IMG/VR virus record: IMGVR_UViG_3300020030_000095
Location: 1-5,982 of that record
Reading direction: 5' to 3' (one strand)
DNA: 5,982 nucleotides
Source: a virus
This document shows, piece after piece, positions 1 through 5,982 of the stretch. A program made the translations under genes and the position numbers. How positions within the stretch are numbered: position 1 is the first letter of the stretch; each line of letters begins with the position of its first letter. The notes beneath the pieces are model-generated. The model was not told the DNA's origin. It did no database searches and saw only the letters and a list, made by a program, of their open reading frames with translations.

Positions 1-121
1 TATTTGCACCGGCCTGATTCATGACTACCTGCACATTGACGGTCTGAGAAGCAGCAAAGAGTAATTTCGGGCGATCGACATGGGCGATCTTCGAAGCGAA
101 GAACGTTTCGATCCAGTCCGA
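1..121. repeat. Terminal direct repeat, left copy (circular-genome assembly overlap)
   Basis: I compared 1..121 base by base with 5862..5982 and they are identical. The repeat runs to both window edges and lies inside an open reading frame that is continuous across the junction. Confidence 0.97.
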
Positions 122-1213
122 ATAACGAGAACCGCCAGCACCAAGGAGGTCTTTATACTCCTGAAGGCGAGAAGCGATAGCCAGCTGGGGAATAGTCGTA
201 ACACCCGTCATCGAAACGGCATCCGAATTGCCGTTGGGAAGCAGACGACTGAAACGGTCGGGATTCGAGGGAACAACGGCCATCGGAAACGCCAAACGAG
301 TGCAGAAGTAAGGCGTAACGGAGGTGGTGGTAACCAGCGTACCGTCGAACTGCGAAGTCGGAACAGTCGTGAGAGTTTTAGTAGGAGTCGCGGCAACGGG
401 GAAGCCATTAGAGTCAGCAGAACCACTACTGATGAACGAACTCTTGATGATCTGGAAATAGAGGTTCACACGGTTGTACGTGTTATTCGTAGACTGAACA
501 GCCGACGGATAGAACTGGGTTTCATAGTAAGAATCCAAGAACTCGAGGTTAGCCCAGTTCTGATTGAAGTACGAACGAGTGGCAATGGAATCACCGCCGA
601 CAAACGAATACTGATCTCCATCGGAGTTGTAGTACACCGACCACGAAGCAGGCGTAGCGAACGAGTACACAGACCACTGCGAGTACGCATAGTAGTTGCG
701 AACGATATCCCAGTACGCCAAAAGGGAATCGCAGTTGAACCAATCTGAACGAGAGGTGTCCGGACTCAAAGCAGTATCGGACATCTCCTGCATGGTAAGC
801 GAAGAAGCATGAGGGGCCTGAACAGCTCGAAGCCAGAACAAGAGAGAGTTAGGAAGCGCACTACGAATAGACGCCGCAGAGCCAGCGCCATAATACGGCG
901 CGATCGGGAACCAGTTGAGCGACAAGCTATTCATATCGAATTTACTGCTGTTCGTTCTCATTTCAGGATGATACAACTGCAGGGGTACCCAAAAACGGTG
1001 AAGCCGTACCGTGTACGGGTTGAACGACGGCACAGCGAGGGGGTTGGAACGTACATCAATACCCTGTTCGATAGTCACCCGGTCGCGGGCATTAATAAAA
1101 TCGATACGAACAGGATACAAAATACCAGGAGTGCAAGTGAATGCCTTGGACTCCGGGACGTCGTAGCGAGAATAACCGTTGACGACATGAGAAATAAAAG
1201 GTTGTTTTCCCAT
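1..1213 (-). CDS. VP1: Major capsid protein VP1 (Microviridae F-type jelly-roll), N-terminal about 404 codons; the gene continues across the circular junction into 5861..5254
   Basis: A minus-strand ORF starts at ATG 1213..1211 and stays open to the left window edge. It is missing from the ORF track because it has no stop inside this segment. My translation reads MGKQPFISHVVNGYSRYDVPESKAFTCTPGILYPVRIDF..TVRLHRFWVPLQLY...IPQLAIASRLQEYKDLLGAGGSRYSDWIETFFASKIAHVDRPKLLFAASQTVNVQVVMNQ. The frame is continuous with ORF 5254..5895: 1213 mod 3 = 1, and shifting by 5861 gives the frame of 5895. Joined, the gene is 1,821 nt (606 aa). The F-x-V-P block and the LQ..........GSRY....I...F.......DRP block match my recollection of conserved Microviridae capsid motifs. 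This was not aligned. Confidence 0.93.
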   Translation of the reverse strand, partial: MGKQPFISHVVNGYSRYDVPESKAFTCTPGILYPVRIDFINARDRVTIEQGIDVRSNPLAVPSFNPYTVRLHRFWVPLQLYHPEMRTNSSKFDMNSLSLNWFPIAPYYGAGSAASIRSALPNSLLFWLRAVQAPHASSLTMQEMSDTALSPDTSRSDWFNCDSLLAYWDIVRNYYAYSQWSVYSFATPASWSVYYNSDGDQYSFVGGDSIATRSYFNQNWANLEFLDSYYETQFYPSAVQSTNNTYNRVNLYFQIIKSSFISSGSADSNGFPVAATPTKTLTTVPTSQFDGTLVTTTSVTPYFCTRLAFPMAVVPSNPDRFSRLLPNGNSDAVSMTGVTTIPQLAIASRLQEYKDLLGAGGSRYSDWIETFFASKIAHVDRPKLLFAASQTVNVQVVMNQAGAN

Positions 1214-1225
1214 AAACAAAAAAGA

Positions 1226-2296
1226 TTATGTTAGATTAAGGCCATAATGGTCATGCCAGAACCGGACAACATCCCGATCCAGCCACACGGGGGCCTGAAT
1301 GTCCGGGATATCGCCGGCAGAGGTGAACTCGCGGAACTTCTTCAGTTCCCACGAATACGTCTCTCGAGAGGATAGGGAGGAAGCGGGAAGCGCCATTTTA
1401 ACACACAAATCAACGATGCGACGAACCAAAGGAGAGTTGCTGAAGCGTGCATAAGCGTCAGCAGAACGAATCGCGCGCTTCTGCTCGTCTTTCGGTTGCA
1501 AATATCGGTTATAGTAGCGAGGAATCGCATAGTTATACGTGACACCGCGGCCAAGATCGGTATAAGACCAAGTCGACACAGAAAAAGTAGGAGCAGGCCG
1601 ACGGCCAAGATAATCACCAACGCCAGCAGATACGAATTTTCTCGTATAACGCTTATGTTGGAGGAGATGAGCCAATAATATAGGTTTTCCATCTATAGTA
1701 ACAGTTTTATCGCCGAGTTCGGCTGAATTATAACCAATTTGCTTAACCACGTACTTGACACAGTATCGCGCACGCTTATGTGTAGCTTTTGAGAGCCACA
1801 CAAATCCAAGATCAGAAACAGCCGACCGAATTTCATTGTACAGGACATCCGTTCCGAAAAGGAATCCGTGAAAATGCAAACGCGGTTCCGAACCTTGCTC
1901 GGGATGACAACCAAATTCTTGGAAAAAAACGTGTTTAAAGGAATGTCCGATTTTATGACGAACTCGTTCGTTCCATTTTCGAATGAATTTAGAAGGATCT
2001 CGAAGTGCGGACTCATAGTACTTTGGATTAATGGTTATAGTTATAAAAATGGCCTGCCGAGATTCAGCCTTACAACGAGCTAATTCTCGTTCTATACGGA
2101 CGAACCAGTCATTCCGAAGACGTCGAAGACAGTCCTCACACTTACCACAAGGGACCATAAGCCATTGACGAGATACATCCCACGGACGAAGAGCTAAAGC
2201 TGACTTATGATCATCATCAACATTGAAACCGCGGCGAGGACGGCTCTTGTCGAAATATCGACGGTTGCGAATCCATATAGGGTGCTTGCAGGCCAT
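1226..2296 (-). CDS. VP4: Replication initiation protein VP4 (HUH rolling-circle endonuclease, phiX174 gpA-like superfamily)
   Basis: 356-aa ORF with an ATG start. It carries the Cys cluster VPCGKCEDC (C50/C53/C56, nt 2129..2149) and motif 1 FITITIN (nt 2027..2047). The HUH motif PRLHFHGFLF has H141-F-H143, which I verified as CAT TTT CAC at 1876..1868. The two-tyrosine catalytic motif is Y178-CVK-Y182-VVK (nt 1751..1765). The order and spacing of these motifs are characteristic of Microviridae Rep. Confidence 0.93.
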   Translation of the reverse strand: MACKHPIWIRNRRYFDKSRPRRGFNVDDDHKSALALRPWDVSRQWLMVPCGKCEDCLRRLRNDWFVRIERELARCKAESRQAIFITITINPKYYESALRDPSKFIRKWNERVRHKIGHSFKHVFFQEFGCHPEQGSEPRLHFHGFLFGTDVLYNEIRSAVSDLGFVWLSKATHKRARYCVKYVVKQIGYNSAELGDKTVTIDGKPILLAHLLQHKRYTRKFVSAGVGDYLGRRPAPTFSVSTWSYTDLGRGVTYNYAIPRYYNRYLQPKDEQKRAIRSADAYARFSNSPLVRRIVDLCVKMALPASSLSSRETYSWELKKFREFTSAGDIPDIQAPVWLDRDVVRFWHDHYGLNLT

Positions 2297-2299
2297 AAT

Positions 2300-2497
2300 T
2301 CAAAAAATCGTTTGCAATACGTCTATCTTATAATGCGGGTTATCCCGGCGCAAACGAACGGCATATTCCTGAGCATCGTTGTGCTCCAAAAACCACGCAA
2401 GGATAACCCTTTTTTGACCACGGTAGTAACCAACGGAGAACCGAAAGGGTTTGTCGGTCGCTACGCATGGTCTGCAAGGGCAGTAGAAAGGGTCCAT
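2300..2497 (-). CDS. Hypothetical 65-aa protein, possible small DNA-binding protein, immediately upstream of the Rep gene
   Basis: The ATG at 2497..2495 overlaps the TAA of the upstream basic-peptide ORF (TAATG). Its TGA stop lies 3 nt before the VP4 ATG. The ORF is in the same frame as VP4. The sequence MDPFYCPCRPCVATDKPFRFSVGYYRGQKRVILAWFLEHNDAQEYAVRLRRDNPHY has a CxCxxC motif followed by a beta-strand/helix pattern. No family was recognised with certainty. Confidence 0.6.
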   Translation of the reverse strand: MDPFYCPCRPCVATDKPFRFSVGYYRGQKRVILAWFLEHNDAQEYAVRLRRDNPHYKIDVLQTIF

Positions 2498-2574
2498 TAC
2501 AGAACCTTACCACCGACGGGACGAGTAACTACCCGCGTGCCGTTACCGCGACTTTTTTTCTTCTTTCGTGCCAT
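2497..2574 (-). CDS. Putative small basic DNA-binding/packaging peptide (phiX174 J / chlamydiaphage VP8 analogue), 25 aa
   Basis: This ORF is too short for the ORF track; I found it by hand translation. ATG 2574..2572 reads MARKKKKSRGNGTRVVTRPVGGKVL then TAA 2499..2497. Nine of 25 residues are K/R and none are acidic. Its stop overlaps the next start (TAATG). It overlaps the 3' end of the 107-aa ORF by 32 nt in another frame. Confidence 0.5.
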   Translation of the reverse strand: MARKKKKSRGNGTRVVTRPVGGKVL

Positions 2575-2866
2575 GATCATTAATTTTAATTACGATAAAA
2601 TTGGGATAGAATTCCAAGCCTGAAAAAGCAGGATTTACAACGAGAGAACGGATGAGAAAACCGAGGTTGTCCGAAGTAACAAAAGCCTTTCCGCCGAGAA
2701 TCTCGTCAAATCGTACCAAATCGACAGCATGTTCAGCAAGTTGAGCAAGAACACCTTCAACGTCGGAATCAGGAAGAAACTGACCCTGTTTTTCATCAAT
2801 ATGGCCGGTCTGAATATCGAAGACCGGAACCTGCGGAGCAAGGATGCGAATCACAATCTGTTTCAT
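2543..2866 (-). CDS. Hypothetical acidic 107-aa protein (unknown function)
   Basis: The ATG at 2866..2864 overlaps the TGA of the upstream 90-aa ORF (ATGA), suggesting translational coupling. It is on the same strand as all core genes. No motif was recognised. Confidence 0.65.
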   Translation of the reverse strand: MKQIVIRILAPQVPVFDIQTGHIDEKQGQFLPDSDVEGVLAQLAEHAVDLVRFDEILGGKAFVTSDNLGFLIRSLVVNPAFSGLEFYPNFIVIKINDHGTKEEKKSR

Positions 2867-3135
2867 AGCTTATCAAAATTTTTGGTTAAAAAGTCATTCC
2901 ATTTAATATCAACGTTCATCCAATAGTCAAAACCCTGCCTTGTCTTATCAAATTTAAAAGCGGCAGAAACAAACATATCGGAAGGAACGAAAGTGAGGTA
3001 ATCAAAGAGCGACATGCCCTTTGCGTGATGTGGAGAGCGCATAAAATTGTCCATGAAATACCGAAAGGCGCAACGCTCATGGAGGAATTTAATAAAGGTA
3101 ATAGCCAAGCGGAAGCGTTTCATCAAAGATCGCAT
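2863..3135 (-). CDS. Hypothetical 90-aa protein (unknown function)
   Basis: ATG at 3135..3133, 5 nt downstream of the 3184..3141 hairpin. It is ATGA-coupled to the next ORF. The aromatic-rich C-terminal half reads FVSAAFKFDKTRQGFDYWMNVDIKWNDFL. No family can be named from memory. Confidence 0.6.
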   Translation of the reverse strand: MRSLMKRFRLAITFIKFLHERCAFRYFMDNFMRSPHHAKGMSLFDYLTFVPSDMFVSAAFKFDKTRQGFDYWMNVDIKWNDFLTKNFDKL

Positions 3136-3140
3136 AATAA

Positions 3141-3184
3141 AAACGGTTTAATGTTGTACTGCAAAAATACAACACAAACCGTTT
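3141..3184 (-). terminator. Strong hairpin plus U-tract between VP2 and the 90-aa ORF (candidate intrinsic terminator or attenuator)
   Basis: AAACGGTTT (3141..3149) pairs with AAACCGTTT (3176..3184), and TGTTGTA (3152..3158) pairs with TACAACA (3168..3174). That is 16 bp with a small internal bulge and a 9-nt loop. In mRNA sense the 3' arm ends ...CCGUUU followed by UUAUU and then the ATG at 3135. Confidence 0.5.
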
Positions 3185-3214
3185 ACAAACAAGATCAAAA
3201 CCGGAACAAAATTG

Positions 3215-4462
3215 TCACTTTCGGGAACGAGAGCGCAAATCTTCGCGGCGGACATAGGTTCCACTGACATATTCACCATTCCGATCGTAGTTTTCGCGCA
3301 TCTCTTCCATAAAGGAGGTCTGAGGTGCGGCGAGAGCTTTACCACCAGCGTAGGCGGTACCGACGGAAATAGCACCTTGGAGAGCAGTACGGGCAAGCGA
3401 GTAGCCAAAAGCATTCTTCTCAGAACGATTACGGAACCAATTGCCAGCCATCTCCTGATTACCAGTAGAGACGTCGAGACCGATCAGGTACTTGTGGATT
3501 TGCTCACCTGTCATCTTAACCGTCTTTCCGGTAGGCTTGCCTGATTCGGTGACCTGAGGAACAGCGATCTCCGTAGTCCAATTCAGGTTGAACCAGTTTT
3601 GAAGGTCCTGCAACTTAACACCGAGGATTTCCTTGTCGGCCTTGGCAAGATCACCGGAAGCGGAAGCCTCATACGCGCGGGCATAGTCCAACGCCAGCTG
3701 AGCGGCATAGACCTTGTCCATATACTCGACATTGTACTTGCGGAGATTCTCGTATTCCTCACGGTGCTTCGCATACTGGGCGACGAGGTCTTGGAACTTG
3801 TAGGTCGCGGAGAGATCAGCGTAGGAAGCATCAGCCTGATAAATATCGGCAAGAGCGCGATTCATATCAGCTACAGCATTGGCATTATTGACACCAGCGC
3901 GCTGAATGGAGACATTGAGGTCTGCAACGGACTTATAGTAATCAGGAGTCTGCATCTTCGCTCTGATATCGTCGGCTTCAGCACGATCGCGCTGGGCAGC
4001 GGCATCGTTGCGATCAACAGCAGAACGGGCCTGCATCATACCAATGGCAGAGCCAGCAGCGGTAGAACCAAGACCAGGGACAGGATTACTAAAGTCAAGA
4101 GAACCGGCCGAAGGACCAGAAGCACCACCAGCAGAAGCACCAGAAGCGCTCATTGTAGCGTTAACACCAACACCAGAGGAGCCAAGAACGCCAGCGGGAG
4201 TAACTCCGGCCTTAAGGTAGCGATCAAAGACCTTGGAGGGATCGTTATAAGCGTTTTCATAGTCGAATTGCTTCTGCCAATTCTGGTAATTCAACTCAGA
4301 CTGTTTAGCAAGCTGTTCAAGCGCATATTGCTGCTGAAGAGCCATTTGCTTTTGTTGATACCTCCATTGCTTCTTCAAGGAAGGCTTAAACATGCCACCA
4401 ACAGCATTACCGACGGCACCAGCACCAAGACCAATAAGGGCAGAGGTAGTAACGGGATCCAT
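3215..4462 (-). CDS. VP2: DNA pilot / minor capsid protein VP2 (phiX174 H analogue)
   Basis: 415-aa ORF with an ATG start. It has a glycine-zipper hydrophobic N-terminus (TSALIGLGAGAVGNAVGGMF). Next comes a Q/N-rich helical segment ending in YLKAGVTPAGVLG, which resembles the ...AAGLNP.L.. motif I recall from gokushovirus/alpavirus VP2. A Gly/Ala/Ser low-complexity tract (about nt 4027..4189) and a long Ala/Asp/Tyr-rich helical region follow. Size and position fit VP2. Confidence 0.8.
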   Translation of the reverse strand: MDPVTTSALIGLGAGAVGNAVGGMFKPSLKKQWRYQQKQMALQQQYALEQLAKQSELNYQNWQKQFDYENAYNDPSKVFDRYLKAGVTPAGVLGSSGVGVNATMSASGASAGGASGPSAGSLDFSNPVPGLGSTAAGSAIGMMQARSAVDRNDAAAQRDRAEADDIRAKMQTPDYYKSVADLNVSIQRAGVNNANAVADMNRALADIYQADASYADLSATYKFQDLVAQYAKHREEYENLRKYNVEYMDKVYAAQLALDYARAYEASASGDLAKADKEILGVKLQDLQNWFNLNWTTEIAVPQVTESGKPTGKTVKMTGEQIHKYLIGLDVSTGNQEMAGNWFRNRSEKNAFGYSLARTALQGAISVGTAYAGGKALAAPQTSFMEEMRENYDRNGEYVSGTYVRREDLRSRSRK

Positions 4463-4464
4463 AG

Positions 4465-4662
4465 CTACGGACGTTTGAAGTCGCCTACCTGTTCGTAAGT
4501 AATAGTAGTGCGGGTCGTATCACCTGACTTGATGGAGGACGCGGACTGAACAACGTAATGACGTGTAGTGCATCCGCTAATAAAGAATGCTGCTAAAGCG
4601 GCAACAATGGCGGAAATAAGCGTCCAAAACTTTTTGGAAGTAATAATCTGCTTGAAAGTCAT
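4465..4662 (-). CDS. Small predicted lipoprotein (65-aa precursor, about 35-aa mature), function unknown
   Basis: The first ATG is at 4662..4660; the 82-aa track version starts at a GTG at 4713. Hand-verified translation: MTFKQIITSKKFWTLISAIVAALAAFFISGCTTRHYVVQSASSIKSGDTTRTTITYEQVGDFKRP. It has a basic n-region (K4, K10, K11), an uncharged h-region, and lipobox I-S-G-C with Cys31 (nt 4570..4581). The TAG stop lies 2 nt before the VP2 ATG. Confidence 0.6.
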   Translation of the reverse strand: MTFKQIITSKKFWTLISAIVAALAAFFISGCTTRHYVVQSASSIKSGDTTRTTITYEQVGDFKRP

Positions 4663-4844
4663 AATAAGCGAAATTTGGGGCAAATAAGAAACGATAAGAA
4701 AATGCGCGGACACTTGGGGATGCGTTGACGTTCGAAGAAGCTATGCAACAGGAGATTCACCAACTCTCTCCAGTTGTCCCGCGCACGTAGCATATATCGT
4801 CTAGTAAAGAGACAACTATTTTCTTTCAGAGATGCCGAGACGTC

Positions 4845-4859
4845 CACGGGACACCCGTG
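4845..4859. other. Short GC-rich hairpin CACGGG-aca-CCCGTG next to a CCCGGG palindrome
   Basis: Perfect 6-bp stem (4845..4850 with 4854..4859) and a 3-nt loop. The CCCGGG palindrome lies at 4862..4867. Confidence 0.35.
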
Positions 4860-4878
4860 AACCCGGGGTATTTTACGA

Positions 4879-4909
4879 GAAGAATATGGCCACAGGGGCC
4901 ACATTCTTC
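4879..4909 (-). terminator. 13-bp hairpin 24 nt downstream of the last gene (candidate terminator and/or ssDNA origin hairpin)
   Basis: GAAGAATATGGCC (4879..4891) pairs with GGCCACATTCTTC (4897..4909). This gives 12 of 13 pairs and a 5-nt loop. No U-tract follows in mRNA sense (UCGUAAAAUACC). Confidence 0.4.
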
Positions 4910-4932
4910 AACAGCGGCCGGACAGAGCAAGG

Positions 4933-5241
4933 TCATTTACCTCCGCCTGCGGCGTCGGTGGTTGCAGACTCCGTCTGCTTGCTCTCGGCCGACAACGTAG
5001 AGTCAATCAACTCCTGTCCAACTTCAAGGCCATCAAACTTATCCATTCGACTGAAAGAGTTGGGGTCGAAGTCAATATCGGGGTCAAACTTTTCACGCTT
5101 ATCCCAATCCGACTGCTGGGCAGGGACATCGGGGCGGCCAGGGAGAACTTCAACAGAGCCAGAACCGTCCAAAACAGACCGAATACGTTCACCACGCGAA
5201 AGATACTCAGGACGATCTTCGATCAGATAAGAAACAGGCAT
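4933..5241 (-). CDS. Acidic 102-aa protein; possible internal scaffolding protein (VP3-like), assignment uncertain
   Basis: The ATG at 5241..5239 lies 12 nt after the VP1 stop, on the same strand. By my count there are about 22 D/E against 12 K/R, with a DPDIDFDPNSFSRMDKFDGLEVGQELID block. The scaffold call rests on small size, acidity and adjacency to the capsid gene, not on a recognised motif. Confidence 0.6.
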   Translation of the reverse strand: MPVSYLIEDRPEYLSRGERIRSVLDGSGSVEVLPGRPDVPAQQSDWDKREKFDPDIDFDPNSFSRMDKFDGLEVGQELIDSTLSAESKQTESATTDAAGGGK

Positions 5242-5253
5242 AGATAAGAAATT

Positions 5254-5982
5254 TTAGCGGTTAGACAAACGTGTTGCGAAGGTTTTGTTAACGAGGTTCT
5301 TCTTCCTCACGGCGTACGACATATTTACAAAGAAGTTATCTTCGGTATTCGAAGCAAACGGGCTGTTCACCTGCTTCATGTCAACGAACAGAGCCGGGAT
5401 ATAACCCAGATTTTCCTGCCCTTGATAAGCGAAAATATCATTCGAACGCTGTTGAACCCAGTAAGAATACAACGGAAGCGAACTCGGGTAGGTAGTACCA
5501 GCGTAGACAGAAAGCTGACCGAGGACCTCGTCATACGAAGAGCGGAACTCATTAAAACAAGGCTCCGAAGCCATGGAACCAGTCTCTTCCGAAGAAAGCA
5601 TATAGAACGGAACATCCTGATAGCCAATATCATTGTAAATCGGATTAAAATAATCCGCGCCCTGATAATTGAGATAATCAGGACGAACACCTGCCCAGTA
5701 ATACACCGGACGAATCGACAACATGTCGATCAGGTAACCGGGCTCATCGAAGTAGTACGACTGCGAACGGCCAAGGCGCTCGTTGAAAGCAATAGAACCA
5801 CCTTGCTGACCAAGAGGATTAGCGGCGATGTCACCAGTGGAAGCGTTAGGGTCGCCAAAATTATTTGCACCGGCCTGATTCATGACTACCTGCACATTGA
5901 CGGTCTGAGAAGCAGCAAAGAGTAATTTCGGGCGATCGACATGGGCGATCTTCGAAGCGAAGAACGTTTCGATCCAGTCCGA
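5254..5982 (-). CDS. VP1: Major capsid protein VP1, C-terminal part (open to the right window edge; 5862..5982 duplicates 1..121)
   Basis: ORF-track entry 5254..5895 begins at a GTG shown as M, but the frame stays open upstream to 5982 (SDWIETFFASKIAHVDRPKLLFAASQTVNVQVVMNQAG...). The C-terminal sequence YYFDEPGYLIDMLSIRPVYYWAGVRPDYLNYQGADYFNPIYNDIGYQDVPF is typical of VP1/F family C-terminal strands. The stop is TAA at 5256..5254. Confidence 0.93.
   Translation of the reverse strand, partial: SDWIETFFASKIAHVDRPKLLFAASQTVNVQVVMNQAGANNFGDPNASTGDIAANPLGQQGGSIAFNERLGRSQSYYFDEPGYLIDMLSIRPVYYWAGVRPDYLNYQGADYFNPIYNDIGYQDVPFYMLSSEETGSMASEPCFNEFRSSYDEVLGQLSVYAGTTYPSSLPLYSYWVQQRSNDIFAYQGQENLGYIPALFVDMKQVNSPFASNTEDNFFVNMSYAVRKKNLVNKTFATRLSNR
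5862..5982. repeat. Terminal direct repeat, right copy (circular-genome assembly overlap)
   Basis: Exact 121-nt copy of 1..121. This implies a unit length of 5,861 nt. Confidence 0.97.

Follow-up and report, generated by a model that had tools for sequence, protein, structure and literature searches.

LIPO, a 65-codon open reading frame (ORF), is encoded by IMG/VR virus record IMGVR_UViG_3300020030_000095, of which positions 1 to 5,982, the whole stretch analysed, are referred to as the window. Judged by its conservation among relatives, LIPO is shown here to be a real gene that has been vertically conserved throughout a large gut microvirus clade, and it is very probably a genuine lipoprotein gene. 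Its family is undescribed, unannotated and restricted to microviruses of Bacteroidota. The product may act from the periplasm as a lysis or egress factor, a role that we favour tentatively. The two functions proposed in a first-pass annotation of the window, lysis and superinfection exclusion, remain the right ones to consider, with a mild lean to lysis.

The first-pass annotation had described the ORF as a substrate of signal peptidase II, and its translation, MTFKQIITSKKFWTLISAIVAALAAFFISGCTTRHYVVQSASSIKSGDTTRTTITYEQVGDFKRP, bears this out. The basic n-region contains K4, K10 and K11, the lipobox reads ISG|C31, and the full PROSITE PS51257 rule is satisfied by this ORF alone among the ATG-initiated ORFs of at least 40 aa in the six frames of the genome. 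K4 supplies the K/R that the rule places in the first seven residues, with K10 and K11 besides, and the core {DERK}(6)-[LIVMFWSTAG](2)-[LIVMFYSTAGCQ]-[AGS]-C, with its Cys at 15-35, is matched by A21-F26, F27-I28, S29, G30 and C31. The h-region had been given as 15 uncharged residues; the segment F12-G30 is indeed without charge, and 16 rather than 15 of its residues are strongly hydrophobic. The mature part is 35 aa long counting Cys31 and contains 11 Ser/Thr (31%), in keeping with the short, Thr/Ser-rich peptide that had been proposed. AlphaFold2, applied to the LIPO alignment, predicted a helix at residues 10-31 and a beta-hairpin at 36-46/49-59, with a mean predicted local distance difference test score of 71 (~60 in the hairpin). 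The gene lies on the minus strand, which corrects the earlier description, and the proposed tight coupling to VP2 was confirmed: the TAG stop (4467-4465) and the VP2 ATG (4462-4460) are separated by 'ct'. LIPO had also been called the first ATG-initiated ORF after the intergenic region. It is the first conserved gene there, but an 81-codon ATG ORF (4904..4659) precedes it. We rejected that ORF, the frame of which is not kept in relatives, and likewise an 82-codon, GTG-started version of LIPO (4713), the start and frame of which are not conserved.

Mononucleotide shuffles of the genome yielded 0.115 PS51257-passing ORFs per genome. Because the lipobox pattern by itself thus has a p of only ~0.1, the weight of the observation must rest on comparative data. 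By tblastn, 64 GenBank records of microviruses contain a homologue of LIPO, in many of them without annotation. An index of 5.8 billion proteins contained 36 LIPO clusters, a profile search among 1.84 billion representatives gave 80 matches, and LIPO was present in 117 IMG/VR contigs, 80 of which were retrieved. In the alignment, residues S9, K10, F12, W13, T14, L15, A22, A25, F27, C31 and D48 are invariant, and K11 is conserved at ≥90% in the A1 alignment. Each invariant residue is encoded by two to five synonymous codons (Ser9 by TCG, TCC, TCA, TCT and AGT; Leu15 by five codons), and the proportion of synonymous differences (pS) is 0.44-0.69. The constraint therefore acts on the protein, and a DNA-level cause of the conserved N-terminus, such as an origin, a promoter or an overlapping frame, was discarded.

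The pooled Nei-Gojobori ratio of nonsynonymous to synonymous substitution rates (dN/dS) was 0.21 overall, where dS is saturated, and 0.08 within subtype A, to which the window belongs; for the mature domain within subtype A it was 0.025. A chance lipobox-like pattern in a non-coding or mis-framed stretch, which would arise in ~11% of shuffled genomes and which has counterparts in the spurious lipobox ORFs seen in alternative frames of relatives, is effectively refuted by codon use and dN/dS, and by the conservation, synteny and free synonymous variation of LIPO. The first-pass annotation had itself named three findings that would speak against the gene: loss of the ORF or its Cys in relatives, a dN/dS near 1, and no predicted lipoprotein signal. 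Instead, both ORF and Cys are conserved, dN/dS lies at 0.08-0.21, and the rule-based PS51257 test is positive.

The family set comprised 213 unique segments, of which 204 were scored with a lipobox Cys. The nine that remain are eight fragments that end before the lipobox and the N-terminally cut P0095, which has the lipobox FFTVGC that the heuristic missed. The Cys is present in 204/204 intact unique members, including those with unrelated signal peptides. The PS51257 core pattern fits 177 of the 204, and a few of the 27 failing rows reflect a wrong Cys taken by the Cys-finding heuristic. The most frequent lipoboxes are LSSC, LESC, LTSC, VSGC and ISGC, followed by S, T or A at +2. LESC, with Glu at -2, is the commonest misfit (17 unique members, L008-L016 and relatives). 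Glu is disallowed by both the PROSITE and the DOLOP definitions, and these variants are either tolerated by the signal peptidase II and Lgt of Bacteroidota or processed differently.

In the distant members (L088-L094; P0092-P0115) the signal peptides are unrelated, e.g. MNKGRAVVWIVLIIAIAVVTIFASC, and the border Cys is retained together with the mature motif C-[ST][ST][ST]H.V.QS.S...GD[ST]T...I.YEQ.G..K. Such a pattern is to be expected if LIPO is a substrate of signal peptidase II and the lipidated mature peptide is its functional unit. The same members make it improbable that the hydrophobic N-terminus is the effector, with the SKKFWTL...IVAALAAFF helix acting in the inner membrane, whether it stays uncleaved or is released as a stable signal peptide, in the manner of the phiX174 E transmembrane domain, and with the lipobox secondary. 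Such a role would suit the invariance of the core at the protein level and the greater conservation, across subtypes of the main subfamily, of the signal-peptide core (dN/dS 0.08) compared with the mature part (0.31); within subtype A, however, it is the mature domain that is the most constrained. That domain occurs as discrete types A, B and C on a shared signal peptide. A negatively charged surface-export signal after the Cys has been described for lipoproteins of Bacteroidota. An acidic residue at +2..+6 was found in only 6/204 LIPO members, and in the absence of this signal the peptide should remain on the periplasmic side.

Searches of LIPO against Pfam, PHROG, NCBIfam and PDB sequence profiles gave nothing above noise, and the colicin lysis, Rz1, entericidin, Llp and Cor families were absent from the profile-search matches. 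None of 37 members matched PF02402 (Lysis_col) in Pfam at E up to 5. With regard to Llp and Cor, LIPO gave only noise-level PHROG matches to families of unknown function, and no Pfam match. Sub-threshold NCBIfam matches (YgdI/YgdR, LppK, EexN, LpoB and MBA) were limited to the signal and lipobox region. In nr, the entry P0009 is labelled 'chitin synthase regulator', probably spuriously: the 37 members have no Pfam match to RCR (PF12273) at E up to 5, and we infer that the label stems from a low-complexity or transmembrane match. The top profile match, P0037 (2657 aa, 41 stretches), was dismissed as a tandem-repeat ORF artefact, the unit of which merely resembles a signal peptide with a Cys. 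A literature search across 8 million papers returned no description of this family or of a microvirus lipoprotein, lipobox or spanin, and none of an Alpavirinae lipoprotein.

In the lytic clade, defined by a VP4 at least 45% identical to that of the window, the order intergenic region-LIPO-VP2 and a LIPO/VP2 gap of 1-2 nt are kept throughout. LIPO adjoins VP2 in 11/11 complete relatives picked by VP4 alone, and it is present in at least 12 of 14 relatives retrieved by nucleotide similarity. By this distribution, LIPO is shown to be a core gene of the clade. A search of 185,579 reference genomes gave a single LIPO match, which lies within an intact microvirus provirus of Alistipes montrealensis (Bacteroidales). 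Other homologues, of a longer form, lie on chromosomal contigs at the same host locus, with a formate/nitrite-transporter gene on one side and helix-turn-helix (HTH)/HIT genes on the other. In L082 (6070-14457) and L107 (6034-14290), this one locus holds microvirus proviruses in opposite orientations, as would fit integration into a symmetric (dif-like) site. The HTH gene beside the provirus LIPO was considered as a phage repressor and set aside as a host gene, since the provirus takes either orientation between the HTH/HIT and transporter genes. Whichever way the provirus is inserted, LIPO points in the same direction as the host gene that flanks it.

The VP1 and VP4 proteins of this temperate lineage are only ~26% identical to those of the window, and LIPO is there the first gene after the attachment end, preceding VP4 and not adjoining VP2. 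LIPO itself is 62-65% identical between the lytic and temperate lineages, and mature types A and C occur in both. Because LIPO identity and types cross lineages whose VP1 and VP4 have diverged this far, its partner would be a host component rather than the viral capsid or pilot protein. In three proviruses with the long form (L105, L106 and L107), the only called genes are long LIPO, VP4, VP1, a VP3-like gene and VP2, so that LIPO alone falls outside replication and structure.

The provirus ORF extends LIPO by ~130 codons, which encode a Ser-rich, unconserved linker of ~100 aa, followed by a hydrophobic stretch of 12-16 uncharged residues and a tail with a charge of +7. Lipobox, linker, hydrophobic segment and basic tail together suggest a layout like that of a unimolecular spanin. 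We also observed that the Ser-rich stretch overlaps a better conserved ORF of 116-135 aa in another frame. The conserved tail, RRGGRRGKPRPKxKxIPLGGSHL, is similar to J/VP8, small basic proteins that bind DNA and were reported missing from Bacteroidetes proviruses; the end of the long form may be either part of one spanin-like protein or a separate J-like peptide made from an internal Met.

phiX174 has been described as the sole microvirus with a known lysis mechanism, and a sporadic M15 peptidase has been put forward as an endolysin (Roux et al., PMC3394797). The same role for M15 in Bacteroidota microviruses was proposed with the description of a microvirus isolate that infects Bacteroides (PMC13064476). 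Krupovic and Forterre found Bacteroidetes proviruses to be without homologues of E, J, C, D or G (PMC3091885). We found no endolysin, holin or peptidase domain in any window ORF with Pfam or PHROG, in agreement with the first-pass annotation, which had recognised no endolysin. M15 peptidase was absent from 96/96 LIPO-positive loci, and LIPO was absent from 7/7 M15 microviruses (best E-value of the LIPO hidden Markov model, 0.09). The seven M15 genomes were the cultured Bacteroides phage phiHBP1 (L097), two IMG/VR relatives (L098, L099) and four bajarodmic viruses (L101-L104); their lineage has the gene order VP1-VP2-M15-VP4 and a Rep of ~500-570 aa. Like LIPO, M15 of the Alpavirinae/phiHBP1 type is a non-structural 'extra' gene of Bacteroidota microviruses. 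It differs in being an enzyme of 134-146 aa that was gained horizontally from hosts or tailed phages.

Several of these observations incline us towards lysis or egress: LIPO is core in a 5.9-kb genome in which no ORF has a muralytic domain, it and M15 are mutually exclusive in our sample, it is the sole non-replication, non-structural gene of the five-gene proviruses, and its long forms may be spanin-like in layout, with the colicin-release lipoproteins as a functional precedent. In the mechanism that we propose, the product would be exported by Sec, lipidated on Cys31 and cut by signal peptidase II, as sequence rules predict. What remains would be a 35-residue, Ser/Thr-rich beta-hairpin lipopeptide, tethered to the membrane and facing the periplasm. 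We propose tentatively that this lipopeptide would bind a conserved component of the host envelope. As infection ends, it would help the envelope to fail and the virus to be released, in a mode like that of the small colicin-release lipoproteins or of the outer-membrane spanin subunit, possibly jointly with e116, a predicted inner-membrane protein encoded within VP4. LIPO would be the first cistron of the main transcript, with translation of VP2 coupled to it. More doubtfully, LIPO could represent a new class of single-gene lysis effector, a lipid-anchored, periplasm-acting 'protein antibiotic' in the form of a beta-hairpin of 35 residues, by which a conserved function of the Bacteroidota envelope would be disabled. 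It would be used in place of M15, would have a spanin-like elaboration in proviruses and would possibly act with e116.

A number of points weigh against a role in lysis. The exclusivity of LIPO and M15 is confounded by lineage and by the small number of M15 genomes, no homology of LIPO to any known lysis protein was found (Pfam, PHROG, NCBIfam, PDB), and the C-terminal segment of the long forms is borderline as a membrane span, with a Kyte-Doolittle 19-residue maximum of ~1.4. As the first cistron, LIPO should be expressed from the start of infection. The co-directional host gene could, through read-through, express the provirus LIPO in lysogens, which would suit exclusion better than a lethal gene. 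Single-gene lysis proteins are usually poorly conserved, and LIPO is very conserved. Finally, e116 is an equally good or better candidate for a phiX174-E-like protein, and LIPO is therefore not needed to explain lysis.

The first-pass annotation had recognised no phiX E-like gene. This claim does not stand, given a conserved ORF, e116 (1692..1342), that is overprinted in VP4. In 72/72 full-length relatives, down to 45% VP4 identity, its frame starts with ATG and stays open for 116-120 codons; a same-frame ORF just upstream of it is open in only 26/53. Synonymous diversity of VP4 is 0.27 exactly over the overlap with e116 (codons 202-318), versus 0.49-0.52 elsewhere. This combination is, by sequence criteria, the classic signature of an overprinted gene. 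The predicted protein has ~3 hydrophobic segments in a conserved pattern, with a Kyte-Doolittle 19-residue maximum of 3.09, and a conserved PPYP motif, and it matched nothing in Pfam, PHROG or NCBIfam. It is probably a phiX174-E-like or holin-like gene, and would be an equally good lysis candidate, whether as rival or as partner of LIPO. Other embedded hydrophobic ORFs (e88, e37, e54, e53 and e107) were rejected as lysis candidates because their frames are not kept open. With phiX174 E, LIPO would share the character of a small, membrane-targeted microvirus solution to lysis that uses no muralytic enzyme. E, however, is an uncleaved N-terminal transmembrane protein, overprinted in gene D, that blocks MraY from within the inner membrane, whereas LIPO has its own non-overlapping frame, free synonymous variation and a cleavable lipobox; it is e116 that is overprinted.

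The colicin or bacteriocin release lipoproteins (BRP, Kil; Lysis_col) resemble LIPO in that their precursors measure 45-65 aa and carry a lipobox for signal peptidase II. The mature BRP-type lipopeptide has ~28-35 aa and is polar and Ser/Thr/Gly/Gln-rich, as in LIPO. The signal peptide of the pCloDF13 BRP is unusually conserved or functional, and it is stable when released. In BRP, one small gene permeabilises the envelope without a muralytic enzyme; for LIPO, lytic activity is a candidate function only. The BRP genes are carried by enterobacterial plasmids and share no detectable sequence similarity with LIPO, a virus gene in Bacteroidota.

The likeness to the o-spanin Rz1 lies in a small, phage-encoded, predicted outer-membrane lipoprotein whose lipoprotein signal is followed by S/T/A at +2. 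In addition, LIPO adjoins VP2, the product of which has an N-terminal hydrophobic segment and a coiled coil (PMC3091885). In contrast to Rz1, the mature part of LIPO has no Cys after C31, is not Pro-rich (its single Pro is the last residue) and, at 34 aa, is too short to span the periplasm. No holin-endolysin cassette was found in the genome, the LIPO neighbour VP2 is a pilot protein and not a known i-spanin, and spanins accompany endolysins, whereas LIPO never co-occurs with M15 in our sample. Compared with the unimolecular spanin T1 gp11, the window LIPO ends at residue 65 without a second hydrophobic segment; the provirus long forms, with N-terminal lipobox, long linker and a borderline C-terminal hydrophobic segment, may be like T1 gp11.

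We consider it somewhat unlikely that LIPO is an exclusion factor, though this rival reading is to be taken seriously. As an outer-membrane, periplasm-facing lipoprotein, it would bind a receptor, e.g. a TonB-dependent transporter, or TonB itself, and block adsorption or DNA delivery, so that progeny would not be wasted on debris. Size and architecture are like those of the Llp/Cor-type lipoproteins: T5 Llp and Cor (phi80/N15/HK022) are phage outer-membrane lipoproteins with a mature part of ~60 aa or less, are expressed early, have genes beside an entry-protein gene and target a host receptor from within the periplasm. LIPO would likewise be expressed first and adjoins the pilot-protein gene, its mature types A, B and C are discrete on a common signal peptide, and it lies at the end of the provirus, in the direction of the host gene either way round, so that it could be expressed in lysogens. 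The invariant D48-[TS]-[TV] strand may loosely resemble a TonB box. Exclusion genes, however, are normally accessory and patchy, whereas LIPO, in a genome of 5.9 kb, is present in all the complete relatives that were examined. Its very strong purifying selection (mature dN/dS 0.025) bears no sign of an arms race, its types do not follow the divergence of VP1 or VP2, and no stand-alone or domesticated copy was found in the 185,579 reference genomes, where the sole match is the intact provirus. LIPO thus differs from Llp and Cor in being core and slowly evolving rather than accessory, and it has no sequence similarity to these families in PHROGs or Pfam.

No Shine-Dalgarno motif was found upstream of any window gene, and the leaders are A/T-rich (e.g. 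4663-4687, 2297-2321 and 1214-1238, minus strand). Missing Shine-Dalgarno motifs are usual in Bacteroidota; from this, and because a relative is integrated in Alistipes, we infer a Bacteroidota host for the window virus. The absence of such motifs may account for the start of VP2 2 nt past the LIPO stop. In such a host, LIPO could serve mainly as an upstream cistron that feeds ribosomes to VP2; alternatively, it could modulate the outer-membrane or peptidoglycan machinery for replication or assembly, or counter an envelope-based defence. We regard such other roles as unlikely. The 1-2 nt spacing kept in the lytic clade and the lack of Shine-Dalgarno motifs would fit them, and no family assignment limits the function. 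A pure coupling role, on the other hand, would not yield protein-level purifying selection and an invariant Cys, and in the temperate lineage LIPO is not beside VP2.

The window is a complete circular microvirus genome. Its first 121 nt are repeated exactly at its end (1-121 = 5862-5982), so that the circle is truly 5861 nt of the 5982-nt window. An apparent frameshift in VP1 proved to be an artefact of this terminal redundancy: once the repeat is removed, a single 606-aa ORF results. The coding strand of every gene is the minus strand, on which the series runs VP4/Rep, VP1, a 102-aa acidic ORF, an intergenic region of ~270 nt, LIPO, VP2 and small ORFs of 90, 107 and 65 aa (Table 1). The counterpart of VP2 is annotated as a DNA pilot protein in OM869610. 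The nearest GenBank record, Dipodfec virus UA23Rod_963 from rodent faeces, has 84% nucleotide identity, and the faeces of pigs, lemurs, rodents and humans were the source of further relatives.

Directly upstream of LIPO lies a strongly conserved, non-coding intergenic element with the sequence CTTTACTnGAyGATATATGCTACGTGCGCGG ... GAGAGTnCGTGAAT ... CCGCGCATTTTTCTATCGTTCTTTA. Its inner stem covaries among relatives, and the stability of its fold is ordinary (z -1.1). The element is likely a replication origin and/or promoter-leader. Its motif was found in 73/107 loci and is confined to the lytic clade, which led us to discard the idea that the element moves jointly with LIPO.

Table 1. Positions of LIPO, its parts and the other features discussed
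Feature	Coordinates	Strand	Basis
LIPO, 65 codons + TAG stop	4465..4662	-	ORF translation, homologues, dN/dS
LIPO n-region, residues 1-11 (MTFKQIITSKK; K4, K10, K11)	4630..4662	-	alignment, codon use
LIPO h-region, residues 12-27 (FWTLISAIVAALAAFF), predicted helix	4582..4629	-	alignment and AlphaFold2; Kyte-Doolittle 19-residue maximum 2.06
LIPO lipobox ISGC, predicted lipid attachment/cleavage at Cys31 (codon 4570-4572)	4570..4581	-	Cys conservation
LIPO mature polar domain, residues 32-65, predicted beta-hairpin	4468..4569	-	alignment, AlphaFold2, dN/dS
LIPO/VP2 junction TAG-ct-ATG, termination-reinitiation distance	4460..4467	-	1-2 nt gap kept across lytic clade
Long-form LIPO ORFs of proviruses	L041 1440-2027; L082 7992-8600; L105 7001-7585; L106 1512-2114; L107 7001-7606		ORF
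e116, putative 116-codon membrane-protein ORF, +1 frame of VP4	1342..1692	-	open frame in relatives, synonymous diversity drop
Conserved intergenic element, GATATATGCTACGTGCGCGG + long-range stem GCGCGG/CCGCGC	4684..4829	-	conservation, directly upstream of LIPO
VP2 / DNA pilot protein, 415 aa	3215..4462	-	PHROG 8689 pilot protein, E 9e-8
VP4 replication initiator, 356 aa	1226..2296	-	Pfam PF23343 and PHROG 942
VP1, 606 aa, intact across circle junction	1213..1 joined to 5861..5254	-	ORF after repeat removal
102-aa acidic ORF at the VP3 scaffold position		-	between VP1 and intergenic region
Terminal redundancy, copy of bases 1-121	5862..5982	.	exact match

Bacteroidota microviruses are among the most abundant viruses of mammalian guts, and LIPO marks a gap in their annotation: the gene is not annotated in several records, one nr entry is probably misnamed, and the family is missing from Pfam and PHROGs. 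The exit route of microviruses other than phiX174 is unresolved (PMC3394797), and it is here narrowed to two short conserved candidates, the 65-codon LIPO and the 116-codon e116. If LIPO is an exclusion factor, it would be the first in Microviridae and would point to the receptor. If it is lytic, it would mark a conserved, periplasm-accessible weak point of Bacteroidota envelopes.

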